A stretch of 45,075 bases of DNA from a virus. A program made the position numbers and the translations under genes. The notes beneath the pieces are model-generated. The model saw nothing but the letters and a program-made list of their open reading frames with translations, made no database searches and had not been told where the DNA came from. How positions within the stretch are numbered: the stretch's first letter is position 1; each line of letters begins with the position of its first letter. Shown here in pieces: positions 2,179-45,075 of this stretch. The DNA lies in IMG/VR virus record IMGVR_UViG_3300045988_034500; one strand, given 5' to 3'.

Positions 2179-2432
2179 TGGAAGAGCTGACCCTACAACG
2201 AATCAAGCTACTGAAAGAACGTGTTAATCGTTATAGTAATGATCCTACGAAGATTCCGCAAGATGAGAGACGAGAACTCTCGCTGATGTTCGCTGTAGCT
2301 TTCAAGGACTTTAAGGACTTCTGTGAGATTGGTATGCGATTCCTTGGCTTCGGTATTACCGAGATGCAGTTGAGCATCGCAGAGTACGTCCAGAATGGCC
2401 CTAAGAAGAGAATGGTCCAAGCACAGAGAGGT
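2178..2432 (+). CDS. terL: large terminase subunit, exon 1 (N-terminal ATPase region up to the Walker A motif)
   Basis: The protein ends ...NGPKKRMVQAQRG, which aligns to T7 gp19 ...NGDNKKFILQAFRG immediately before the GIGKS Walker A motif. The open frame stops at TAG 2433-2435. Confidence 0.7.
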
Positions 2433-2662
2433 TAGTCTAAGGCTGAGCCTCGTAATCTCGTGAATACGGGGGAACTCTCGTAAGAGACAATCCCGTGCCA
2501 AGACTCGAAAGAGTAAGGTGTAACGACTATCCTATATGGAGTAGGGGCAAGTGTCCCGAAGCGCGAGACTCCGCATGTCGGAGAAGATATAGTCTGATCT
2601 TGTAGGCGACTACAAGCTGTCGAAAGACGGGGGAGGATTAACGACCCTCCCTGAACACAATG
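2433..2662 (+). mobile_element. group I intron (ORF-less, about 230 nt) interrupting terL at the Walker A motif
   Basis: Exon 1 ends in U (2432), which can form the U:G pair with G2448, and GAGG pairs with CCUC at 2449-2452 (P1). The intron ends in G2662. A gap-free alignment to T7 gp19 ([15 protein letters not shown] versus RG+EAKTTITALYAVW) places the 3' splice site here. The core region 2490-2545 is about 75 percent identical to the nrdD intron at 20143-20198. Confidence 0.65.
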
Positions 2663-4267
2663 GAAGCTAAGACGACCATTACAGCGCTGTACGCTGTGTG
2701 GAGATTGATCCAAGATCCTACTTGTCGTATCTTGATCGTCTCTGCAGGTGAAGATCAGTCCAATGACATCGCAGTGCTTATCATTCGATTGATCGAGCAG
2801 TGGTCTCTGATGTGTTGGCTTAGAGCAGATACCTCTAGAGGTGATAGATCCTCGTATGAGCATTATGACGTGAACAGGGATCTCAGACGAGTTGAGAAGT
2901 CTGCCAGTGTGTCGAGTGTTGGTATTAAAGCTAACCTCCCCGGTCGAAGAGCTGACCTCATCATTGCTGACGACGTTGAGTCGATTACGAACTCCACTAC
3001 GCAGGTTATGCGTGATGACCTTCTGAATAGAACGAAGGAGTTCACTGCTATCTGTACGCATGGACATATCCTGTACCTCGGTACCCCTCAGACTAGAGAG
3101 AGCGTGTACAAAACTCTGCTCAGTCGAGGCTTTGATATCCGTATCTGGCCAGGTAGATATCCTGAACCTGATAGGTTGGACAGGTACCTTCCAGGCACGC
3201 TAGCTCCAGAGATCGAAGAGGCTATCAGGAAGGACCCCTCGCTTCAGAGTGGTGGTGGTCTAGACGGTACCAGAGGGAAGCCTACTGATACGGGTAGATA
3301 CACGGAAGAGGATCTTCAGGATAAAGAGCTTGACTACGGTCCTGAAGGCTTTGACCTGCAGTACATGCTCGATACTACGCTCTCTGATGAAGCTAGAACG
3401 AAGATCAAGCTCAGTGATCTTATGATCGCCAATACTGGGTACATAGAAGCCCCTGAGACGTTCATGTACAGCGCAGAGCCTAGACTCCTCGTCAAGGATC
3501 CTGAGATTGCTACACCTCCGATGCACGGCAATCGAATGTACTACACGGCAAGAGCATCGGAGAACTTTATCAAGTACGATCATAAGGTTATGGTCGTAGA
3601 CCCTGCAGGTAATGGCGGTGATGAACTGGCTTACTGCTGTGGAGGTGCATGTAACTCTTACGTGCATATCTTTAGCGTAGGCGGGTTCATTGGCGGCACT
3701 ACCGAAAAGAACATCAACGATATTATTGATCTGTGCTTGGAGTTCGACATTAAAGCGATTAAAGTCGAATCCAACATGGGACATGGTACTGTTGAATCAC
3801 TGTTCATCGCTGAACTTCAGAAGCGAAAGATTAACGATATTGGTGTTGAAGGGTTCTATAACACAATCCAGAAGGAGAAGCGTATCATTGATACCGTGTC
3901 TCCTGTAACTCGTAGACACAAGATGGTGTTCCATGAGAGAGCCATCAGAGACGATTGGAAGTGTTGTATCAGGTACACCCCTGAGAAGAGAACCATCGTG
4001 AGTTGTCTGTACCAGATGGCTAACATCACGTATGATAGACAGTCCTTGGCTAAGGATGACCGTGTGGATGCTCTGGCAGGCGTTGTACAACACCTCAGTG
4101 ATTGTATCGCAAAGGATGACGATAAAGCGAATGAACTTAGAGAACAAGAACAAGCAATGGAGTTCTACAGAAATCCTATGGGATACAAGAACTACGGAGG
4201 TAAGAAATACAACGAATGGAACAACTTGCACAAGTACAGCAGGGTAACTCGGAAGCATCGTTGGTAG
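2663..4267 (+). CDS. terL: large terminase subunit, exon 2 (rest of ATPase domain plus nuclease domain)
   Basis: EAKTTITALYAVWRLIQDPTCRILIVSAGED... and LIIADDVE (Walker B) align with T7 gp19 [29 protein letters not shown]... and IIIADDVE. YLGTPQT is conserved. Confidence 0.85.
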   Translation, partial: EAKTTITALYAVWRLIQDPTCRILIVSAGEDQSNDIAVLIIRLIEQWSLMCWLRADTSRGDRSSYEHYDVNRDLRRVEKSASVSSVGIKANLPGRRADLIIADDVESITNSTTQVMRDDLLNRTKEFTAICTHGHILYLGTPQTRESVYKTLLSRGFDIRIWPGRYPEPDRLDRYLPGTLAPEIEEAIRKDPSLQSGGGLDGTRGKPTDTGRYTEEDLQDKELDYGPEGFDLQYMLDTTLSDEARTKIKLSDLMIANTGYIEAPETFMYSAEPRLLVKDPEIATPPMHGNRMYYTARASENFIKYDHKVMVVDPAGNGGDELAYCCGGACNSYVHIFSVGGFIGGTTEKNINDIIDLCLEFDIKAIKVESNMGHGTVESLFIAELQKRKINDIGVEGFYNTIQKEKRIIDTVSPVTRRHKMVFHERAIRDDWKCCIRYTPEKRTIVSCLYQMANITYDRQSLAKDDRVDALAGVVQHLSDCIAKDDDKANELREQEQAMEFYRNPMGYKNYGGKKYNEWNNLHKYSRVTRKHRW

Positions 4268-4615: not shown

Positions 4616-5026
4616 ATGAAGTCTATCATCCAAAGGGTGTCGATCGCTCTAGCGGCCTGTATGGCTGTTTTAGCGGGGTATTGGTATATCCAGACCCTGA
4701 ACACTAAGATCGAGAACCTAGAAAGTAGCCTCCAGAACGCTATAGAGGCGCTTGCAGACGTTCAAGGGGCGGTGAGCGCACAGAACACTGCACTGAAGAA
4801 CTGGAGAGCCTCTCAGGAGGCTCTAGAGGCCTCTCAGAAGGAAACTAGAAACAGGATTGAGTATGTTCTCAAAACTACGAAGGGTAATGCTAGGGTTGTC
4901 GATAGCGCTGTTATTGACGAGCTGTGTAACGGTGCAGGAAGGAAGTACTGCGCAGAGAGTGCATACGCCAGTAAGAACAGTGGTACCAACAACGCTAACA
5001 ATGCAGTGCAAAGAACCAAGTCTTAA
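4616..5026 (+). CDS. i-spanin (Rz-like: N-terminal TM anchor plus periplasmic coiled coil)
   Basis: GAGG RBS. N-terminal IALAACMAVLAGYWYI TM segment followed by a long helical region. A lipoprotein gene overlaps its 3' end in another frame. Confidence 0.6.
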   Translation: MKSIIQRVSIALAACMAVLAGYWYIQTLNTKIENLESSLQNAIEALADVQGAVSAQNTALKNWRASQEALEASQKETRNRIEYVLKTTKGNARVVDSAVIDELCNGAGRKYCAESAYASKNSGTNNANNAVQRTKS

Positions 5027-5201
5027 AGGTAGTACGATAAGCGATCTAGTAAGGCACATCGTAGAACTACGAGAGAGCGTAGATGAATGTAATAATCGTA
5101 TGTCTACGATAGATAAGAGCCTAGATGAGTACGATAGAAGGTATAACAGAGATACTGAGATTAGCGGGGATGTGAATAGCGGGTATGTGAGTACTAAGTA
5201 A
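4863..5201 (+). CDS. o-spanin (Rz1-like outer-membrane lipoprotein), overlapping the i-spanin gene in the +1 frame
   Basis: Signal peptide MFSKLRRVMLGLSIALLLTSC with an LTSC lipobox. An alternative TTG start lies at 4857. Confidence 0.6.
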   Translation: MFSKLRRVMLGLSIALLLTSCVTVQEGSTAQRVHTPVRTVVPTTLTMQCKEPSLKGSTISDLVRHIVELRESVDECNNRMSTIDKSLDEYDRRYNRDTEISGDVNSGYVSTK

Positions 5202-5307
5202 CACCTAAATTTGGTATACTAACGCGAGAGGGTATCTCCCATTACACCAAGCGATTATCCCCCATATACCCCTAGTGCACTATTACCATCATCATGTTGA
5301 ACATCAT

Positions 5308-5666
5308 GTAGTTCACCTAGAGTATACCCTAGTACATCATCAGTACACTTAGTTGTAGTAGTAGTACACCTAGAGTACTACTGTGTGGTATATACTAGGT
5401 ATGCCTAGAGAGTAGAGTGTACTTGTGGGGATATATCTCTTTATCCCTATGTATATCTCTTTTGTCTACATAGGTATCTGTAGTACACCATTAGTATACT
5501 GCTAGAGATCTATCTCTTGTATTCATTAGTATATCTATGTATCTATCTATATTACGTCCAGCAGTATACTGTTATATATCTATAGTAGTTCACCTATAGT
5601 GTATATTAGTACATCCATCATTGTACTCTTAATAGTACATACTGTAGTACACCTATGTATACTACT
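5308..5666. repeat. array of five approximately 20-bp direct repeats GTAGTwCACCTAkAGTrTAc in an AT-rich non-coding region
   Basis: Copies at 5308-5327, 5361-5381, 5480-5500, 5585-5606 and 5644-5666, with interspersed hairpins carrying TATCTCTTT loops (5427-5449 and 5446-5489). Confidence 0.7.
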
Positions 5667-6316
5667 AAGTATACTATACATTGTTCTACTGTAGTTCTAT
5701 ATCTATCTATATATAAAGATATCCTGCTTGCGATGTATAGCCTCAGCGTTGTATCTCATGATTACATCTCATCATTACATCGCATGATTCTATGGCATAT
5801 CCTATGAGGTATCGTCCAGTGGTATCTTGTTTTGTCCATCATTATCCTCCGCCATGGGTTTCTCTTTATGGGCGTTCCCCTCCTTTCAGTCGGGTCGGGC
5901 TATCCGCTTCGGCTTCCTCGTCTATCACTAAGTTCGACTAATCGTCTCTGTGTCTCTTAGGAGCCACAGATACGATAAGTCTCACTAAGCTCTCTCCTCG
6001 GCGATCCTCCGCTACTATCCCTAACGCAGTACCCGCACTCGCAGGCTACCTATGAACATCCTATGCGCCTCTCTTACGCTCTCTATAGGTACTTGCCGCT
6101 CCGCCACGCTTCGTATCCCTCTAGACTATGACAGGCTGCTCGATAATCGCACCGTCCTCGCTACGCGAGGGGTGGTTGCTACGCACCCTCCCCTCGCTAC
6201 GAGTCCGATTTTAGCGATTATCTCCCATCCTGTCAAGTCTATACATCGTTTGTGGTCGCTCCGCTGTGGACGCTCAGGATGGTAGGATTTTGCCTACCTA
6301 GGGGAAATCCCTACAG

Positions 6317-6347
6317 TTTACACAGGCAGCCGAATCTGTGCTATACT
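6317..6347 (+). promoter_or_regulatory. candidate sigma70-type early promoter (TTTACA, 19-nt spacer, TATACT)
   Basis: -35-like box at 6317-6322 and -10-like box at 6342-6347, about 25 nt upstream of the GGAGG RBS of the first early gene. Confidence 0.3.
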
Positions 6348-6372
6348 TTATCCATCTTTTGGAGGAATCATC

Positions 6373-6462
6373 ATGATTGAGATGATCGCCAGAGGCGTAT
6401 GCCTCGCCCTCGCCGCCCTGTTCGTCTGGGCATGTTGTTACTTTGTTTACGCCATTGCTTAA
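6373..6462 (+). CDS. small hydrophobic peptide (29 aa, MIEMIARGVCLALAALFVWACCYFVYAIA) coupled to the downstream polymerase-like gene
   Basis: GGAGG RBS 7 nt upstream. Its stop lies inside the RBS of the next gene. Not in the ORF track because of its size. Confidence 0.35.
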   Translation: MIEMIARGVCLALAALFVWACCYFVYAIA

Positions 6463-6473
6463 GGAGTATCATT

Positions 6474-8030
6474 ATGGCTACGTCTAAGATTATCGCTCAC
6501 GTCAGTGCCCGTATGGAAGAGCTTAAGGCTCGCACCCTTGCCAGTCTCCAGAAGGCAGGTCGCCCTCGGGTAGTAGCCCAGACGATATTCATCGCCGCCG
6601 CCCGTGCCTGTGGTCTGCAGGCTACCCGTAACATCGTTGGCGACCTTACGGCAGTAAAGCCGCTCGTCCGTGCCATGGTTGCTGACGGCTCCCTTGTCTT
6701 CCATCACGTGGAGGGCGGGACTAGCTATTACACGATCCCGTCGGTTGACGGCATGACGGGTAACACTGCCCATACTCCGGGTAACGCCTCCTTTGAAGTC
6801 GATCCCCGTCACATCGGGGAGGACTGTCTGCACTTGCAGGCAGGGAAACTGATCGCCTCCCGCGTCTGGCGTGTCAACGTCCGCAGGCTTGAAGAAGCGC
6901 GAGACCGTAATGCTAACGGTTACGTGTTCAATGATTTCAAGTGGGAAAAAGCCCCGGCTGAGGACGATGCCGCATTTATCGCACAAAGGCAGCAGATTGC
7001 CGCTATTTCTGCTATCGTTGATAGCATCGGTGTCAACGTAGCGTTTGATGCTTTCTGTGATGACCGCGGACGTTTCTATGTCCGTGGGGGCTATACTAGC
7101 CCGTATATGGGCAAGTTGGGTCGTTGGCTCTACACCGCTGACGACGAGGTGACATTAGACCATAGGACGTCATTCGCCCAGAACTTCGCCCTGCTGACTG
7201 GCGATGCTATGGGGCAACACTGCGGTGTTGGTACCGCAGAGGATTGCGATTTCTGGCGTGGTCTCCTTGCCCCGTATGGCGTTAACATCGCCCCGCACAG
7301 CCTGCATAGGGATGCGTGCAAAAGCTACGGGATGCCCCTTTTTTATGGGGCAGGTCAGAGCCTTGCCGCTGAACGTCGTAATGCACTGCTAAAGCAGGCA
7401 GTATCGGCAGGGGAGATCGCCCAGACACAAGCCGACGCCATCGCCGAAGCCCTCGACAAAGTGGGCGAGAAGCTCAAAGGATTTCAGGAGCTGACGCGCT
7501 CCTTCGCGCAGTCCTTCGTGGACTGGGGCGAGGATCCCTCGTGGATTACGCCCAGTGGCTTCAAAGCCTGCAAGAAGTACCGCACGCATAAAACGCTTGT
7601 GTGGAACTCGGGCGAAAACGATTCCACTTGGGCATACCCCAAATCTATGACCCTTAAGGTCAAAACAGGTACAATCTGCACTCAGCCAAAGGACGAGTCC
7701 GACAAGTCCGTTCTTGTGGCAACGACTGCGAACATCCTGCAGTCGTTGGACGCCGCCCTGATGGCTAAGGTTATTGTGTCCTTTAAGCAGGAAACGGGGG
7801 TTACCCTGTTTCCCCTGCATGACTCCTACACCGTGCCAAAGGAGCTTGCCCCCGCACTTACAGCCTGCGTTATTCAGGCAATGCGAGAGCTTGCCGACTC
7901 CGACGAGATGAAGGCGCTCCGCCGTGAACTTAACCTCCCGCCTGTGAAGGTGATCACGGGGAAGGCTCGACCCTCCGACCAGATGCGAAACCTCGACCTT
8001 CGAGCGATGAACCCGCTCGACGAGGAATAA
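6474..8030 (+). CDS. truncated single-subunit RNAP homologue (518 aa; thumb, palm and fingers only; lacks the N-terminal promoter-binding domain)
   Basis: AAGGAG RBS. T7 RNAP motifs are intact: VAFDAFCDD (motif A; T7 LAFDGSCSG), HRDACKSYGMPLFYGAG (motif B RxxxKxxxxxxxYG; T7 RSVTKRSVMTLAYGS), PSWITPSGF (T7 HWVTPDGF), NILQSLDAALM (T7 NFVHSQDGSHL), LHDSY (motif C; T7 IHDSF). Clearly higher GC than the rest of the phage. An intrinsic terminator follows. Confidence 0.7.
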   Translation: MATSKIIAHVSARMEELKARTLASLQKAGRPRVVAQTIFIAAARACGLQATRNIVGDLTAVKPLVRAMVADGSLVFHHVEGGTSYYTIPSVDGMTGNTAHTPGNASFEVDPRHIGEDCLHLQAGKLIASRVWRVNVRRLEEARDRNANGYVFNDFKWEKAPAEDDAAFIAQRQQIAAISAIVDSIGVNVAFDAFCDDRGRFYVRGGYTSPYMGKLGRWLYTADDEVTLDHRTSFAQNFALLTGDAMGQHCGVGTAEDCDFWRGLLAPYGVNIAPHSLHRDACKSYGMPLFYGAGQSLAAERRNALLKQAVSAGEIAQTQADAIAEALDKVGEKLKGFQELTRSFAQSFVDWGEDPSWITPSGFKACKKYRTHKTLVWNSGENDSTWAYPKSMTLKVKTGTICTQPKDESDKSVLVATTANILQSLDAALMAKVIVSFKQETGVTLFPLHDSYTVPKELAPALTACVIQAMRELADSDEMKALRRELNLPPVKVITGKARPSDQMRNLDLRAMNPLDEE

Positions 8031-8065
8031 AAATTCCATAGGGGCGCTGCCCCTTGAATCCCCTA

Positions 8066-8095
8066 GCCCCTGCCAATCGGCGGGGGCTTTTTCTT
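8066..8095 (+). terminator. intrinsic terminator (GC-rich stem CCCCTGCC/GGCGGGGG followed by CTTTTTCTT)
   Basis: Read directly, 36 nt after the stop of 6474..8030. Confidence 0.55.
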
Positions 8096-8150
8096 GCTCC
8101 GGAGTTCCATAGAACCGATATCACAAAAGAATCAGGTGATAAAAAGAAAT

Positions 8151-8174
8151 TCGCTCGCTCGCTTCGCTCGCTCG
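8151..8174. repeat. (TCGC)n-like microsatellite with flanking GC-rich hairpins (8184-8200, 8208-8226, 8253-8269)
   Basis: TCGCTCGCTCGCTTCGCTCGCTCG read directly. Confidence 0.6.
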
Positions 8175-8531
8175 ATCTATAGTGGCACGCTTCGCGTGCC
8201 CCTCTTAAACTCGGGGGCGCTCCGCTCCCCCGAACCCCCTCGAAGGAAGGGGCATGCTGCCCCTCCCTCGCCCTCCCCTGCTCACGTTCCGTCGCTGTAC
8301 TGTACTCACAACGTTAAACTTATGAATAGGACAGAGGGGCTGTACTGCTAAACAGAGATCGTACCTAAGCTCGTCATGAATCCTCGACTTTCATCAGATT
8401 GATGATACAAGACATCTCCAATAAACTGTTGAAGAGCATTAGCTACGAAAGTCAAGGCTCCATGACTCTTATGAATCAAAGACCTACTAGCTTTGCAGAG
8501 CATGAGGAAACTCATGCGCTGCGGACTACGA

Positions 8532-8640
8532 CAGTGCCTAAAGATTCAGGAGTGTACTCATTCCAAAGCACTACACAGTGCCTAAAGAAAAAGGATAGTA
8601 CTACGCCGAGGCAAGGAGTGCCTAAAGTTAGAGGACTGTA
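8532..8640. repeat. three imperfect direct repeats (core CAGTGCCTAAAG plus about 17 nt) with a 40-44 bp period
   Basis: Copies start at 8532, 8576 and 8616. The period is not a multiple of 3, so this is a DNA-level signal and not a protein repeat. Confidence 0.6.
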
Positions 8641-8865
8641 GACACTCCGACGCTGATACTCGCCCTTCAGGCGAGTAAGGGGCCGTTCCACGCCCCTTTC
8701 AATCCCCTTGGCCTATCGCACGCGAGAGCTGTACTGCTTAACAGCGGTAAACTTACGCAAAGGGCTTGCCCTTCAAAAGGCAACGCCGTAACCAAGGCCA
8801 AGACTTAGGGTGTACTCTAAGGCGTAATCTTCATTTACAACATCTACCCTTACCAAGAGGACAAC

Positions 8866-9291
8866 ATGTACAAACTCACCGACAACATGTATGAACGCGT
8901 CAAGGCAACGTATGGTGAAGCCGTCGCCAACGGCATCAACGACGCCCTTCGAAACCCCGAAGGAATCGAAGACGAAGACAACGCCTTCGTAACCGTCAGC
9001 GTTCATCTCGACTGTAATGACAAGATTGCGTGTCTTGACTCAGCAATCTTCCTCCTTAAAAAGGAAGACGAGGTAACAGACCTCAAGCCTCCTCGAATGC
9101 TGGATTGGTACACCCCCAAGGATATCTTCATGGGCCACCTTGAAGAGAAGACTGTCGTCTTCTTACACAAGGATGGCAGCAGCTACCTCGGCAAGGTGGA
9201 CTGCGTTGACTATGAAAATGAGAGCATTCATCTTGAAAACGATGCGTGGTATTGGATGCCGAATATAACCAAGATCATGGTTCTCATGTGA
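8866..9291 (+). CDS. hypothetical early protein
   Basis: 141-aa ORF with an AGAGGA RBS. Confidence 0.5.
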   Translation: MYKLTDNMYERVKATYGEAVANGINDALRNPEGIEDEDNAFVTVSVHLDCNDKIACLDSAIFLLKKEDEVTDLKPPRMLDWYTPKDIFMGHLEEKTVVFLHKDGSSYLGKVDCVDYENESIHLENDAWYWMPNITKIMVLM

Positions 9292-9306: not shown

Positions 9307-9381
9307 CTGCAGGTAGCTCAACGGATAGAGCATAGGTCTTCTAAACCTACGATAGGGGTTCAATTCCCCTCCTGCGGTCCA
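9307..9381 (+). tRNA. tRNA-Arg (anticodon TCT), CCA encoded
   Basis: Folded by hand: 7-bp acceptor stem with one G-U pair; D-stem GCTC/GAGC with an 8-nt loop; anticodon stem TAGGT/ACCTA with loop CTTCTAA; 4-nt variable loop; T-stem AGGGG/CCCCT with loop TTCAATT; discriminator T then CCA. Confidence 0.8.
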
Positions 9382-11714: not shown

Positions 11715-12454
11715 GTAGTTCTAAACGGATCTATCATGGTGCAGAGAGGCGCCCTAATCTCGTAGTAAGGAACCTACCAGATAAGTGGACAGCCTACTGC
11801 TTTGCGTGTAAGGAGTACGCAGAGGTACATAAGTCCTACGTTAGGATCGAAGAGGAGCAGTCAATCATTAACCAAGATCAGGTTAACACGACAGGACTAT
11901 ACAGCCTGACTGATCCTCGTGTACCTCTGCATCGCATTGTTTATTTCCTTCACACCAAGCACATGAGTCTATCGCTAATACAACCTTACAACCCTAGATG
12001 GGATGCAAGGCGAAAACGATTAACCATAGACCTGCCAGATGGCAGACTTGGTCGAGACATTTATGGAACCAATCCTGCCAAGTGGTACGTGTATTGGAAC
12101 TCTGTGCAGTACGGATCCGCATTCGGAACCAATGAGCTAACAGCACAGAACATAATCCTCACAGAGGACATGTTCAGTGCAATCAAGGCTCAGAGATTCC
12201 TGCCCGATACGCAGTGCATAGCGCTCCTAGGAACAGCCCTTACAAGGGGCTTAGAACAGGCTCTATTGCATTGCAAGCCTCGGATGGTACATCTTATGCT
12301 AGACGGGGATGAGACGGGCTACAAAGGCTCCTATAACGTCCTACGGCGTCTTAAACTCCTAGGGATTCCCTGCATCATGCAGAACCCTGAGAGGGGAGAC
12401 CCAAAGGATCAAAACAGAGCATGGTTTAAAACTAAATTCAAGGAGGCTACATGA
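11669..12454 (+). CDS. DNA primase (TOPRIM type), a separate gene from the helicase
   Basis: N-terminal C-x2-C (YCFACKEY), a TOPRIM acidic glutamate (ILTEDMF) and a DxD motif (LMLDGDETG). Confidence 0.6.
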   Translation: METEEWLQEAQRLPVGSSKRIYHGAERRPNLVVRNLPDKWTAYCFACKEYAEVHKSYVRIEEEQSIINQDQVNTTGLYSLTDPRVPLHRIVYFLHTKHMSLSLIQPYNPRWDARRKRLTIDLPDGRLGRDIYGTNPAKWYVYWNSVQYGSAFGTNELTAQNIILTEDMFSAIKAQRFLPDTQCIALLGTALTRGLEQALLHCKPRMVHLMLDGDETGYKGSYNVLRRLKLLGIPCIMQNPERGDPKDQNRAWFKTKFKEAT

Positions 12455-13716
12455 TTGACATTGTGCTTCTTAAGGCACTGTCAAGCAAGAAGCATTTCAC
12501 AGCAACGTACAAGAACCTACCGCAAGAGATGTTGGATCCTGTAACCAACAGGATCCTGTATCTCTATGGCTTGTACTTCGTAACTTATCCTGATCATGAA
12601 GAGATCAATCATGAAGCGTTGATCTCCTACATTGATTTTAAGGTAAGAGACGCAACCAAGCGTGAAGAGATTCATGCTGTGCTAAACACAGTACAGAAGA
12701 CTGAGATTCCTCCAGAGGTTCTAGAGAACACTCAGAACCAGATTGAAGAACTCGCATTCAGTGGTAAGCTCGGTGCAATGCTGACGAAGTACAACGCAGG
12801 TGAGGACATTGATCTCACCTATGAGGTGTCTGTACTTGCAACCCAAACAAGAGAAAGGATGTCTGTGCTTGGCTCCAAAAAGTGGGCTGACGAAGACATT
12901 CTGAAATACCTAGAGGAAGATGCTGATGACAGTGGACTTCAATTCACGACTTTCGATATTCTTCACGATAATCTTAAAGGCTTACATAGCGGGCACAACG
13001 TGGCTGTGGTTGCACCTACTGACAAGGGGAAGACCTCTCTACTCTGTAGACTGGCAGTTGACTTTGCAATTCAAGCCAAAGACCTCGAAGAATACAAAGA
13101 CTCCTGCATTCTGTACCTTGTCAACGAGGGGCTAGCTGAGACTATCACGCCAAGAATTTACTGCACGGCGTGTAACTGCACGAGAGACACAGCCCTTGCT
13201 ATGGCTAGGGAAGGCAAGCTCGTACCTGCCTATGAAAAGATCGTAGGCAAGAGAGATGCTATTCGACTTGTGAACATTCATGGTATGAATGTATCTCAAG
13301 TAGCCAAGATCATTGAAGCTCATAAACCGTACATGGTGATTACCGACATGACGGGTAGAATTCGTGCTAATGGTAACTCCAAGGGCATGAACGAACTCCA
13401 AGAACTTGAAGAAGTATGGAATAACATGAGAGAACTCAGTGCCATGCTTAAGTTCATTCATATCGGTACTATCCAAGTTAGTGCGGAAGGTATGGACAAT
13501 CTGTATCCGCCGCTCACAGCAATGCAATGGAGTAAAGTAGGCATTCAGACTACGCTCGACCTCTGTATCATGGTAGGGGCTTTACAGAACCCTGAAGCAG
13601 GTATGGAGGACATCCGAGGGATTAGCACACCTAAGAACAAGCTCAGTCGATCAGGTAAACGCGCAGAGAACAAGTTCGAAGTAGTGTTCAATCCAGAACT
13701 TAATCAATGGAGATAG
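12451..13716 (+). CDS. DnaB-like replicative helicase
   Basis: Walker A motif VAVVAPTDKGKTSLL. AAGGAGG RBS. Size and position are typical of the T7 gp4 helicase half. Confidence 0.75.
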   Translation: MIDIVLLKALSSKKHFTATYKNLPQEMLDPVTNRILYLYGLYFVTYPDHEEINHEALISYIDFKVRDATKREEIHAVLNTVQKTEIPPEVLENTQNQIEELAFSGKLGAMLTKYNAGEDIDLTYEVSVLATQTRERMSVLGSKKWADEDILKYLEEDADDSGLQFTTFDILHDNLKGLHSGHNVAVVAPTDKGKTSLLCRLAVDFAIQAKDLEEYKDSCILYLVNEGLAETITPRIYCTACNCTRDTALAMAREGKLVPAYEKIVGKRDAIRLVNIHGMNVSQVAKIIEAHKPYMVITDMTGRIRANGNSKGMNELQELEEVWNNMRELSAMLKFIHIGTIQVSAEGMDNLYPPLTAMQWSKVGIQTTLDLCIMVGALQNPEAGMEDIRGISTPKNKLSRSGKRAENKFEVVFNPELNQWR

Positions 13717-23749: not shown

Positions 23750-26176
23750 ATGACGGAATGTCCTGATTATACCGATGAAGAACTTGAGAAAGAAGCTCAA
23801 TACGAACGTAGATTCTACCAAGAAGGCTTGGCTAGAGCGTACCAACAGATGAAGGAGGCCGTCGATAACGGTAGGCTTCCTGATGTAGGGGTTGGTAAGA
23901 AGATCATCAATAGGTCTTTTGCTACGTTGGTTGAGGATCTTACGGAAGCAGCTAAGCCCTGTCGAGGTGTGGGTGCAAAGTACAGCGCCCATATCCGTAA
24001 GCTAGGGATTGAAGCATCCATGATGATTGGTTTGAGAATCATCCTTTCCAACGGCAGTTCTCCTGAACCGCGACACAGAACTGTTCAGTGCATCTTGGGA
24101 CGTATTGGTATGGCTATTGAGACGGAATTGCTCGCTCGTAAATTCGAGGAGATCAATCCGTACTACAATGCTCGTATCGCTTCTCAGGTTAAGGAACAGT
24201 GCGTACATGACGTGCGTACCATCAGAGCCAAGTACCTCACTGGCTATAAGGATCTTAGTATTAACTATGAACCTTGGACTGAGCAAGAGAGGCTGGGTAC
24301 TGCAAAGGTAGTAATGCAAACTATCTGGAAGGCGGGTCTCTTCACAATCACAAACGGTAGTCGTCGTGCTCCTTCTCTGGTTGAACTCTCTGATGAAGTG
24401 AAGATGTTCATCCAGAACAACTACGACCACATCCATCCAGTGATCCAGTTCCCCGTGATGCTCATCAAGCCCCTTCCGTGGAGAGGGATGTACAATGGTG
24501 GGTACATTATCCCTGAGCTGAGGAATCACTGCCCGATGATGAAACTCCACGCTATGCCTAGAGACCTCCGTAAATGGGTAACAGAGCGCGTAGGAGGCGT
24601 CGAGGACGCTCAGGTAAGGGAAGGTATGACCAAGGCTCAGGAAGTCCCGTATCGCGTTAATACGCGCGTCCTAGAGGTTGCTAGGAAGGCGTTCGCCTCT
24701 CCCAAGGGATTGCTTGGGCTTCCTCCCCATGGTCCACAGCCTCAACCGCCCTTCCCCTTCCCTGAAGGGTGGAATAAGGACTCCGCTACAAAGGATGAGC
24801 TTGAGTTGTTCACGAAGTGGAAGCTCGAAATGAAGAGCTGGTACACGTATGAGAACACTCGACTGGGTAAGAAGAGCGGATTGAATGGTAGGCTCAGGTA
24901 CCTGAATGAACTCAAGGATGAGCCAAGGTGGTACTGTCCTGCGTTCATTGATTGGCGTGGTAGGGTGTACTTCAGAAGCACGATCAATCCCCAGAGTGCT
25001 GACGTAATCAAGGGGTGTATTGATTTTGCAGAGGGTAAGGAGTTAGGTGCAGAAGGATTGTACTGGCTGAAGGTTCACGTAGCCAACTGCTGTGGGTACG
25101 ACAAGAAGAACTTTGATCTCAGAGTTCAGTGGGTCGACGAACATTGGGAGGAAATTAAAGCATTCCTTCACGATCCATTGAATGTTGATCCTCCAGAGAA
25201 GGACACTGCCTTCACGCTCCTGCAAGCAGGATGGGACTTAGAGAGCGCTCTAGCGCTTCCTGACCCAACCAAGCATATCTCCCATACCCCAGTGGCTATG
25301 GACGCCACCTGCAGTGGCCTACAGCACTACAGCGCTATGCTGAGAGATGAGGTAGGCGGGTACTACACGAACCTCGTCAAGAGTGATTCTGATGAGAAGC
25401 ACGACATCTACAAGGCTGTTGCTGAGAAGGCTATGGAGTTCCTTCCTGAAGTTACCGATGATGCGTTCATCATCAAGTGGTGGAAGGACAAGGGGATTCC
25501 TAGGTCTATGGCTAAGCGTCCTGTGATGACATACGTGTACAGTGCTACGCTTAGAAGCTGTATTGATTACGTAACGGAGGAGCTAGTCGAGGAAGGTGTT
25601 GAGATTCCCAGTGGCTATAGCTACATCAGTCTTAGCACTCCTATTGGCAAGGCTCTTAGAAAAGCCGTTGAAGCTACTGTTCCCAAAGCCAAGGAAGGTA
25701 TGGATGCTCTTAAGGAGCTAGTTAAGTCCCAAGACGATGCAATTAGATGGATAACTCCAGTAGGTGTTCCTGTTGTTAACTACAAGGACAGCTACCATAT
25801 GAAGTTAGTGCGTCTTAGCTGTATGGGTTTAACGAATATCTCTTATGGCTTTAGTGGTTCAGAGTACAATCGTATGAAAGCTATCAACGGTATTAGTCCG
25901 AACTTCATTCACTCGATGGATAGTTCACATTTGATTAAGGTGGTTAATGCTTTTAACGGTCGTATCCTTTGTATCCATGACAGCTTTGGTACTCACGCTT
26001 GTGATGTACCTGTTCTTCGAACTGAACTGCTCAGACAATTTGTGGATCTGTACGCACATTACGATGCCAAGGACCATTTCGTATTGTCTGCAGAGAATCG
26101 AACAGAGGTACAACTCCCTCCTCATGGGACATTGTCTCTAGAGGAGGTACTGGAATCGGAGTTCGCATTCTGCTAA
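23750..26176 (+). CDS. T7-like single-subunit DNA-dependent RNA polymerase (808 aa)
   Basis: PVAMDATCSGLQHYSAMLRDEVGG (motif A), RSMAKRPVMTYVY (motif B), IHDSFGTHA (motif C), C-terminus ESEFAFC (T7 ESDFAFA). Confidence 0.9.
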   Translation: MTECPDYTDEELEKEAQYERRFYQEGLARAYQQMKEAVDNGRLPDVGVGKKIINRSFATLVEDLTEAAKPCRGVGAKYSAHIRKLGIEASMMIGLRIILSNGSSPEPRHRTVQCILGRIGMAIETELLARKFEEINPYYNARIASQVKEQCVHDVRTIRAKYLTGYKDLSINYEPWTEQERLGTAKVVMQTIWKAGLFTITNGSRRAPSLVELSDEVKMFIQNNYDHIHPVIQFPVMLIKPLPWRGMYNGGYIIPELRNHCPMMKLHAMPRDLRKWVTERVGGVEDAQVREGMTKAQEVPYRVNTRVLEVARKAFASPKGLLGLPPHGPQPQPPFPFPEGWNKDSATKDELELFTKWKLEMKSWYTYENTRLGKKSGLNGRLRYLNELKDEPRWYCPAFIDWRGRVYFRSTINPQSADVIKGCIDFAEGKELGAEGLYWLKVHVANCCGYDKKNFDLRVQWVDEHWEEIKAFLHDPLNVDPPEKDTAFTLLQAGWDLESALALPDPTKHISHTPVAMDATCSGLQHYSAMLRDEVGGYYTNLVKSDSDEKHDIYKAVAEKAMEFLPEVTDDAFIIKWWKDKGIPRSMAKRPVMTYVYSATLRSCIDYVTEELVEEGVEIPSGYSYISLSTPIGKALRKAVEATVPKAKEGMDALKELVKSQDDAIRWITPVGVPVVNYKDSYHMKLVRLSCMGLTNISYGFSGSEYNRMKAINGISPNFIHSMDSSHLIKVVNAFNGRILCIHDSFGTHACDVPVLRTELLRQFVDLYAHYDAKDHFVLSAENRTEVQLPPHGTLSLEEVLESEFAFC

Positions 26177-26191
26177 GTTCGCATTCTGCTA
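26160..26191. repeat. perfect 16-bp tandem duplication AGTTCGCATTCTGCTA x2 spanning the RNAP stop codon
   Basis: Read directly at 26160-26175 and 26176-26191. Confidence 0.8.
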
Positions 26192-26220
26192 GTATCCTAA
26201 TGTTACTATGTAGGGTCTAA

Positions 26221-26315
26221 TAAAGAACTTTTATAGTACGTATAGATGTAATATACTAATGTATATTGTATGTACTCTAGTATATACATATATTACGTAC
26301 TATATTAGTTCTTTA
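26221..26315. repeat. approximately 25-bp imperfect inverted repeat (TAAAGAACTTTTATAGTACGTATA / TATTACGTACTATATTAGTTCTTTA) with a 46-nt spacer in a very AT-rich region; two ACTCTAGTATA motifs (26270-26286, 26321-26338)
   Basis: The reverse complement of the left arm matches the right arm with 2-3 mismatches. Confidence 0.65.
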
Positions 26316-26364
26316 TATAATACACTCTAGTATACTATATCCTCGTTTGCTACAAGGTTATGAG

Positions 26365-44808: not shown

Positions 44809-45075
44809 ATGCTGAACAAGGAGCTTCTATTGGCTACAGAGAGTCAAATAGCAGGGCATATTAAGCTAACGGTCGGAGAATACTATGGCACTTTTGGGTA
44901 CTTTGAAGCCCGGGCAGGTTCTATAAATAGAATCCCAACATGGAACAAAGGAGAGAACCCTATTAAAATGCTTTCGCTACTTACTGATCCCGAAGGGCAT
45001 AACACTATTATGGATTTTTACCGACAGGTAAAAGTAAATGCTGATAGTATAACAATGACTGTTGTTGAAAAAAAG
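44809..45075 (+). CDS. hypothetical protein, 5' part (continues as 2..211 across the circular junction; full length about 131 aa)
   Basis: GGGAGG RBS 7 nt upstream of the ATG at 44809. Open to the window end. Confidence 0.55.
   Translation, partial: MLNKELLLATESQIAGHIKLTVGEYYGTFGYFEARAGSINRIPTWNKGENPIKMLSLLTDPEGHNTIMDFYRQVKVNADSITMTVVEKK

Follow-up and report, generated by a model that had tools for sequence, protein, structure and literature searches.

The 1,172-bp gene-free gap at positions 5202-6372 of IMG/VR virus record IMGVR_UViG_3300045988_034500 (a 45,075-nt stretch of phage DNA, analyzed at its full length and called the window here) is best read from its sequence, with a probability of roughly 0.75, as the concatemer junction of a T7-like phage, its two genome ends merged by circular assembly and its terminal repeat (TR) collapsed to a single copy. 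Circular assembly of a linear genome would join its right end to its left in this manner, and short-read assemblies collapse terminal repeats (PMC10438801). The TR would then run for about 200 bp to 5434 and lead directly into a tandem array of the heptamer ATCTCTT that varies in copy number among strains, and this heptamer, a one-base variant of ATCTGTT, would mark the right TR boundary as in T7, T3 and SP6. The two predicted features at the center of this reading are:

5235-5434, + strand: predicted TR of 200 bp, collapsed to one copy, with a range of 5401-5511 for its right end
5235 (±2), + strand: predicted left physical terminus and first TR base, 5'-TCTCCCATTACACC, placed by homology to mapped termini

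Bases 1-85 of the window are found again at 44991-45075, within coding sequence, so the window is a circularized assembly, as the initial annotation of this DNA had stated, of a genome of ~44,990 bp. The + strand carries all of its convincing genes, among them a primase-helicase, a family A DNA polymerase, an exonuclease and NrdD, as well as the following:

1891-2178, + strand: terS (PF11123 DNA_Packaging_2; phrog_38 and phrog_891 for the terminase pair)
2660-4267, + strand: terL exon 2 (PF22530 Terminase-T7_RNaseH-like, from public annotation)
4616-5026 and 4857-5201, + strand: two spanins
9307-9381, + strand: tRNA-Arg (TCT), in the early region
23750-26176, + strand: T7-type RNA polymerase of 808 amino acids, with portal, capsid, tail and fiber genes downstream

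The 808-residue polymerase is at most 43% identical to that of any GenBank phage, its top matches being Acinetobacter Friunaviruses, and proteins identical to the terL product occur on contigs of human gut metagenomes. Autographiviridae-like and from the human gut, the window phage can be placed as a remote, uncultured representative of the T7/phiKMV kind, and its genome is expected to be linear, with short exact direct repeats at the ends; its terminase is of the T7 type, and the type of the large subunit predicts repeats of just this sort. The gap lies where the junction of a one-strand, T7-like genome belongs, separating the last late gene (packaging/lysis) from the first early gene: the spanins stop at 5201 and the first early open reading frame (ORF) starts at 6373. 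The picture of an AT-rich, ORF-free region between the late genes (terL and lysis) and the first early gene, which the initial annotation had drawn, is borne out. Within 5202-6372, no ORF of at least 51 amino acids lies wholly inside, apart from one unconserved frame of 77 amino acids, and G+C is 0.349 at 5202-5740 (0.30 at 5435-5740) versus 0.469 genome-wide. The relatives aligned with the window, designated here by L numbers, comprise seven strain-level genomes, all of one IMG/VR sample, together with further ones taken from assemblies in ENA, NCBI and Logan; public gene callers place no gene in the equivalent gap of L011-L013, L017 and L019. A nucleotide search of the junction against 50,697 GenBank phages gave no match, and Rfam, applied to 5100-9000 at gathering and E-value thresholds, returned nothing relevant.

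The left end is carried by a conserved block that begins at the spanin stop codon and is the first of several boxes common to the clade:

5189-5272, + strand: Box A, spanning the left TR boundary, with GAGTACTAAGT, AAATTTGG and GCGAGAGGGTA before the boundary, and TCTCCCATT directly after it and ATCCCCCATATACCCC further on

Box A is nearly invariant across the seven strains and is also present in the distant members L007, L017, L019 and L021. We compared it with the annotated termini of eight phages from five subfamilies (T7, T3, gh-1, SP6, phiKMV, LKA1, KP34 and Acinetobacter phage AS11). MAFFT brought the window and four clade members into a single register with T7, phiKMV and AS11, essentially gapless from AATTT to CCCCC, and in this alignment the known first TR bases of T7 and AS11 fall on window position 5235 and that of phiKMV on 5234. 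When probes of 70 nt (30 before and 40 after each known TR start) were slid ungapped along whole sequences, the top match of the T7 (35/70) and AS11 (38/70) probes among ~44,900 window positions was 5235, and the phiKMV and AS11 probes agreed on one base (±1) in L007, L017 and L019. All eight known termini start with YCYY and have CCCCC[AG]T at about +24 to +33, as does the window when read from 5235; searched on both strands, this terminal pattern has a single match in the window, at 5235, and just two in T7, at 1 and 39778, and shuffled genomes yield 0.5 matches per genome, in random places. phiKMV and L007 carry the motifs AATTTTGAT and TTCCCCCGTAGG in identical form, with a spacing of exactly 50 nt in both. 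Because the alignment, the T7 and AS11 probes, the single pattern match and the features common to the eight termini converge, the left terminus is predicted at 5235 ±2. As aligned, the block at 5189-5272 is homologous to the sequence across the left TR boundary of T7, phiKMV and AS11, and a left-terminal block, AATTT-N-GAG-N before the boundary and YCYC-N20-CCCCCRTA after it, is conserved across at least six Autographiviridae lineages. None of the public contigs starts at 5235. Adjoining Box A, the 3' end of the outer spanin gene (window 5162-5190) holds a variable array of tandem units, 1.9 of 15 nt in the window and 4.1 of 18 nt in L016 (1-73), that ends in the conserved GAGTACTAAGT, the opening of Box A.

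With the left end so predicted, the homology to mapped termini, the T7-type terminase, and a junction length and layout like those of phiKMV and AS11 uphold the earlier proposal of a terminus with collapsed repeats. The accompanying suggestion of an early promoter cluster is not supported, there being no sigma-70-like site in 5202-5740 and the 20-mer repeated there (described below) not being a dispersed phage promoter. An origin, the third suggestion, finds no support either: it has no initiator gene beside it, and the hairpins that the initial annotation had emphasized are not conserved structures.

The right end of the TR probably lies at the first ATCTCTT, between 5434 and 5435, to judge by the signals at known boundaries. 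In T7, ATCTGTT occurs once on the + strand of 39,937 bp, at 161, the first base past the TR; the TRs of T3 and SP6 end directly before ATCTGTT as in T7, that of gh-1 ends between ATCTGTC, directly before the boundary, and ATCTGTA further on, and those of phiKMV, LKA1, KP34 and AS11 end directly before TGCCT. The window carries TGCCT at 5402, which would give an alternative TR end between 5401 and 5402 and is not invariant among close strains, followed by a series of ATCT elements:

5432-5478, + strand: variable tandem repeat, 2 units of 21-23 nt, with ATCTCTT at 5435 and 5455, then ATCTGTA at 5476
5512-5518, + strand: third ATCTCTT heptamer
5532-5550, + strand: TATC/ATCTAT run
5700-5712, + strand: ATCTAT run (the Logan contig L018 begins at 5705)

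All clade members have their first ATCT[CG]T[CT] 148-179 nt beyond the C-run, the heptamer being ATCTGTC in L007. The junction holds TATCTCTT three times and TATCTGTA once, and TATCTNT has ten + strand copies in 5434-5710 versus 36 genome-wide on both strands; the ATCTAT runs had been listed by the initial annotation and are present. The tandem repeat (5427-5480) is the sole part of the gap that varies in length among strains, with 2 units in the window, 3 in L006 and 7.1 in L016, and what is conserved is the sequence GGGGATATATCTCTTTT that opens the 21-23-nt unit.

At the right TR boundary of T7, T3 and SP6, ATCTGTT is a class II signal that stalls the phage RNA polymerase, and Lyakhov and colleagues, as well as Zhang and Studier, are said to have found this pause necessary for concatemer processing and packaging. 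A class II pause/termination signal is located at the T7 concatemer junction (bioRxiv 10.64898/2026.02.12.705533). There is no ATCTGTT on the + strand of the whole window, and the strict form (ATCTGTT preceded by A, C or T) is absent from the junction, which has ATCTCTT instead and is therefore not a sequence member of the T7 class II signal, though it may work alike; by analogy, the junction heptamers may act like the T7 pause site. We set no store by an apparent avoidance of the heptamer on the + strand (0 against 5), relatives having ATCTGTT in coding sequence.

Breaks in public assemblies fall in the same place: five independent contigs stop in 5425-5441 (ends 5425, 5428, 5428 and 5441), one of them folding back at 5434, and contig ends overall are scattered over 5362-5939 and clustered in 5425-5441. 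We rejected these ends as a map of the terminus, since strain forks and the tandem repeat can account for them. The contig that folds back, L045, reads at 12417-12549 as window 5381-5434 followed by the reverse complement of 5281-5186, the turn coming exactly after 5434, onto 5263; its sequence fits snap-back priming from a free 3' end at 5434.

The two perfect hairpins that the initial annotation had reported at this point do exist as stems, one of GGGATA 5428-5433 with TATCCC 5442-5447 (6 bp) and the other of CCTATGTA 5446-5453 with TACATAGG 5467-5474 (8 bp), the second ending at 5474 and not at 5489. Folding is weak (DNA folding energy -4.3 kcal/mol, z -2.3; 6/200 shuffles fold equally well) and is not preserved among relatives, the corresponding stretches in L006, L017 and L019 doing no better than shuffles, and on these two counts we rejected the stems as conserved structures. 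The stems arise because two units of the 21-23-nt tandem repeat sit side by side.

That one component of the gap truly varies in copy number (2-7 units), and that two pairs of the 20-mers described below derive from one segmental duplication, would suit a spacer without sequence-specific function whose repeats are neutral products of slippage and duplication. Outside the tandem repeat, however, the spacer is conserved like terL, whereas neighboring genes are 70-80% identical, and four or five cores of the 20-mer are kept in most close relatives spanning the array, so that we consider a neutral origin exceedingly improbable. Among strains, the gene-free gap as a whole is conserved to the same degree as terL; against L006, it is 90-99% identical, the flanking spanin 70-79% and the downstream gene 63-90%. 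In L018 (1-2330, against window 5705-8030), the noncoding leader is 93% identical, and the gene for a compact polymerase that follows it 61% at the nucleotide and 57% at the protein level, a sharp mosaic boundary that may reflect either exchange of the leader between lineages or far stronger constraint there. Distant members (L007, L017, L019 and L021) keep the order of terL, spanins, 1.2-1.5 kb of gene-free sequence and first gene, with first-gene products 63-41% identical (L007 excluded; its terL is 71% identical).

Across the predicted TR and beyond it lies an array of 20-mers, for which the initial annotation had given five copies of GTAGTwCACCTAkAGTrTAc. Its 10-mer core, GTAGTWCACC, is perfect in all five (at 5308, 5361, 5480, 5585 and 5644), always on the + strand and confined to 5308-5653, with zero further occurrences in 45 kb; short-repeat arrays of the SRL/SRR type likewise crowd in and around the TR and are scarce elsewhere. 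The copies are:

5308-5327, + strand: copy 1, GTAGTTCACCTAGAGTATAC, inside the predicted TR
5361-5380, + strand: copy 2, with the internal palindrome GTAGTAC-N7-GTACTAC, inside the predicted TR
5399-5410, + strand: degenerate sixth copy, GTATGCCTAGAG, which holds the TGCCT at 5402
5480-5499, + strand: copy 3
5585-5604, + strand: copy 4, duplicate of copy 1
5644-5662, + strand: copy 5, with a 1-nt deletion, duplicate of copy 2

Four copies match the full 20-mer with at most 3 mismatches versus 0.05 expected, and, when the whole genome is scanned with a 26-nt weight matrix derived from the copies, no site outside 5306-5670 exceeds the shuffle maximum. The pairs 5308+5361 and 5585+5644 are contained in a segmental duplication of ~85 nt that is 79% identical. 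With the sixth copy counted, spacings are 53, 38, 81, 105 and 59 nt, and helical phasing is absent; most close relatives with contigs spanning the whole array keep four or five of the 10-mer cores. Because one copy forms a perfect GTAGTAC-N7-GTACTAC palindrome, its sequence suggests a dimeric DNA-binding protein. We infer by analogy that the 20-mers are the counterpart of the CCTAAAG-type arrays of T7, an analogy only and not a demonstrated homology, since unit length and spacing differ from those of the T7 arrays. A limited literature search turned up nothing usable on the role of the T7 short repeats.

Five or six direct repeats of ~20 bp beside an AT-rich stretch and a variable tandem repeat also recall an iteron-type origin, in which an initiator would bind the repeats next to an AT-rich unwinding element. 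The spacings without helical phasing speak against this, as do the adjoining genes, which encode spanins and a polymerase-fold protein, no initiator-like neighbor having been found; the replication genes (primase-helicase, family A DNA polymerase) are moreover of the T7 type, and T7-type replication starts from transcription, not iterons. As the conserved block is already accounted for by its homology to termini, we regard an iteron origin as very improbable.

Alternatively, one of the two single-subunit RNA polymerases encoded by the phage might use the 20-mers as promoters or binding sites, perhaps to prime replication at a secondary origin like phiOL/phiOR close to the T7 ends. The 3' half of the 20-mer, CACCTATAG / CACCTAGAG, resembles CACTATAG, the core of T7, SP6 and K11 promoters, phage promoters stand close to both genome ends in T7 and T3, the sequence here is rich in AT (G+C of 0.30 over 5435-5740), and the next gene encodes the compact polymerase. 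Yet the resemblance to CACTATAG requires a 1-nt insertion, and the weight-matrix scan confines the 20-mer to the array, whereas T7-type promoters are dispersed; the motif that is dispersed between genes on the + strand is another one, CTGTACT(N)GC. Phage promoters are thus an improbable explanation of the array. The ends may in addition play a subsidiary part in replication, as they do in T7, which is compatible with all of these readings.

Between the array and the first ORF, the left end of the genome continues with three further elements:

5741-6128, + strand: pyrimidine-rich leader (64% C+T), highly conserved, with clade-wide boxes at 5893-5909, 5928-5940 and 6001-6023
6122-6241, + strand: long stable hairpin of 120 nt (RNA folding energy -60 kcal/mol, z -9.4)
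6319-6347, + strand: sigma-70-like promoter TACACA-17-TGcTATACT, directly 5' of the first ORF

Under the junction reading, the leader, hairpin and promoter would make up an untranslated left end, the part of the genome that goes into the cell ahead of the rest and starts early transcription. The hairpin lies ~130 nt 5' of the first ORF, and hairpins of different sequence occupy the equivalent place in L017, L019 and L007 (z -5.3 to -9.2); by this comparison its structure is conserved and its sequence is not. It may be an RNase III-type processing site like R0.3 of T7, or a DNA cruciform. Its right arm also contains a leftward near-consensus promoter, TTGACA-17-TAAAAT (6236 to 6208). The rightward promoter at 6319-6347 has an equivalent in L017 (TTGACG-17-TATACT) and is situated ~1.1 kb from the predicted left end, phiKMV promoters being found at 897-1272.

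These elements bear on the possibility that the 20-mers are early promoters for the host RNA polymerase, like A1-A3 of T7, that drive the leader into the first genes. T7-like phages have strong host promoters within the first kilobase, and all copies lie on the + strand, 5' of a long conserved leader and a possible processing hairpin. No -35/-10 pair 16-18 nt apart exists in 5202-5740, although the promoter consensus of the host may differ from that of sigma-70. The only good rightward site is the one at 6319-6347, directly before the first ORF and kept in L017, three of the copies are inside or at the edge of the predicted TR, and the partly palindromic arms (GTAGTAC-N7-GTACTAC) look more like a protein-binding site than a promoter. 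A battery of host promoters is, in our judgment, distinctly improbable.

Several observations weigh against a T7-like junction with the ends given here. On the right, the candidate ends (5401, 5434, 5454, 5475 and 5511) do not resolve to a single position, and probes taken from the eight known right boundaries scatter, with no consistent position. The cluster of contig ends is ambiguous because the tandem repeat and strain variation begin there and either can break assemblies, and an imperfect inverted repeat (5264-5281 / 5416-5434) could also cause the fold-back of L045. ATCTCTT is one base off the T7 heptamer, and He and colleagues reportedly found in 1998 that single changes abolish the signal for T7 RNA polymerase; since close relatives carry ATCTGTT in + strand coding sequence, the polymerase of the window phage may not read that signal. 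On the left, the phiKMV probe does not rank window position 5235 first, and the spacer range of the terminal pattern was widened by 1-2 nt to admit the window genome. The 20-mers, finally, are spaced 38-119 nt apart versus a period of ~13 nt in the T7 and SP6 arrays, and they are missing from distant clade members, which carry different motifs (TAGCTCT in L007, and GTAGTATAC-like motifs in L017 and L019).

If the junction reading is right, the 20-mers would most likely be recognition or architectural (docking) sites for end formation, packaging or genome entry, as far as one can infer. A tentative extension, which we think rather unlikely to hold in full, is that the variable ATCTCTT array at the TR serves as a tunable roadblock coupling transcription to terminase cutting, with the 20-mers as docking sites for packaging. 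The mechanism of end formation is itself already known; the new product is the prediction of the ends to the nucleotide level. It fixes the correct linear start of the genome at a predicted 5235, accounts for the breaks that many public assemblies from this group of gut phages show here, and marks the sequences to preserve if the phage is rebooted or engineered. Because the left-end sequence is conserved from T7 to phiKMV, the Friunaviruses and an uncultured gut clade, the termini of circularized metagenomic genomes in this family are predictable without reads, and such predictions are readily checked.

Two neighboring features, a polymorphic intron in terL and the compact second polymerase, are more unusual than the junction. 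A group I intron (window 2380-2662, + strand; Rfam RF00028, 56 bits) splits terL into exons of 86 (2175-2435) and 535 amino acids (2660-4267); L001, L004, L005 and L006 have none, L002 and L003 have a larger insert, and L017 and L050 have an intron-less terL of 619-622 amino acids.

The first sizeable early gene (window 6474-8030, + strand) encodes a 518-residue protein with the fold of T7 single-subunit RNA polymerase. Its AlphaFold model (pLDDT 90.6) is matched by Foldseek to T7 RNA polymerase (E 1.5e-11) and also to the yeast and human mitochondrial RNA polymerases; the Pfam match is weak (PF00940, E 1e-5), and the residues D229, R279/K283/Y291/G292 and H449/D450 are invariant. The protein has 73 homologues (92-38% identity), almost all of them encoded on short fragments or on phage contigs of ~45-47 kb. 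From the model, this protein is predicted to be a compact second RNA polymerase beside the canonical 808-residue one, and a limited literature search yielded no description of such a compact polymerase and nothing usable on Autographiviridae with two polymerases. The gene is GC-rich (0.56-0.59 versus 0.47), is flanked by two long noncoding stretches, and is preceded by a hydrophobic ORF of 29 amino acids (window 6373-6462, + strand; MIEMIARGVCLALAALFVWACCYFVYAIA) that has a good ribosome-binding site and is kept in both L006 and L018.

The second long gene-poor stretch follows the compact polymerase gene (window 8031-8865) and begins with a strong terminator at 8065-8088. It contains AGTGCCTAAAG-N-GTACT three times, at 8533, 8577 and 8617 (40-44 nt apart, with the CCTAAAG core of T7), and GCTGTACTGCTWAACAG twice. 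All clade members examined have a comparable second stretch of 0.6-1.5 kb. The two long noncoding stretches of the window share six 9-mers versus ~3.8 expected, which is not significant. In L017 and L019, the second noncoding stretch also holds repeated copies of the dispersed motif CTGTACT(N)GC, which in the window has 8 copies versus 1.1 expected, six of them on the + strand, four of those intergenic:

1432, 8340, 8729, 9418, 11309 and 12830, + strand: CTGTACT(N)GC, dispersed motif

One of the two phage polymerases may use this motif as a promoter. ACTCTAGTRT, tried separately as a shared promoter, is not enriched (11 copies versus 8.2 expected). Further along, an AT-rich segment right after the 808-residue RNA polymerase gene (window 26177-26346, G+C ~0.36) contains ACTCTAGTAT twice as well as a long inverted repeat, and is a candidate origin or late-promoter region, by analogy with the primary origin and promoters after gene 1 of T7.

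Set beside T7, the window differs in several respects: its heptamer ATCTCTT stands in a variable array of 2-7 units, whereas ATCTGTT in T7 is single-copy; its repeat units are 20 nt long at irregular spacings of 38-119 nt, whereas those of T7 are ~7-9 nt at ~13 nt; and no phiOL/phiOR-like phage promoter is recognized in the window, whose ends are predicted from sequence. The likenesses begin with the position of the junction, which in both separates the last late gene from the first early one, in a genome with a T7-type terminase. The left-terminal TCTC of T7, followed at an interval by CCCCCATA, is found in the same register in the window, and a T-rich ATCTNTT heptamer stands where the window TR is predicted to end, the TR of T7 being 160 bp. 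Both have short direct repeats in and beside the TR, the CACCTAnAG core of the window being common with T7 CACCTAAAG; 16 of the 22 + strand CCTAAAG copies of T7 lie in the TR and on both its flanks, and arrays also follow the TR in SP6 (CTTAGT) and AS11 (TGCCTCTATG and TCTTATC). Near their left ends, T7 and T3 likewise have a leftward promoter, A0, comparable to the leftward site in the hairpin arm of the window.

From the phiKMV-like phages, with TRs of 414 bp (phiKMV), 298 bp (LKA1), 216 bp (KP34) and 340 bp (AS11), the window differs in that these four TRs end before TGCCT, whereas its own TGCCT at 5402 is variable and a T7-like heptamer follows 33 nt further on; outside Box A, they have no nucleotide similarity to the window. 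Like them, the window has its RNA polymerase gene after the DNA-metabolism genes, the nearest polymerases being those of Friunaviruses at 43% identity. A pyrimidine content of 69% on the + strand just past the TR of phiKMV and AS11 is paralleled by 64% in the window leader, and the collapsed noncoding junctions are of similar size, at ~1,450 bp in phiKMV, ~1,000 bp in AS11 and 1,172 bp in the window. The geometry of Box A itself, AATTT followed after 50 nt by TTCCCCCGTA, is identical in phiKMV and L007.

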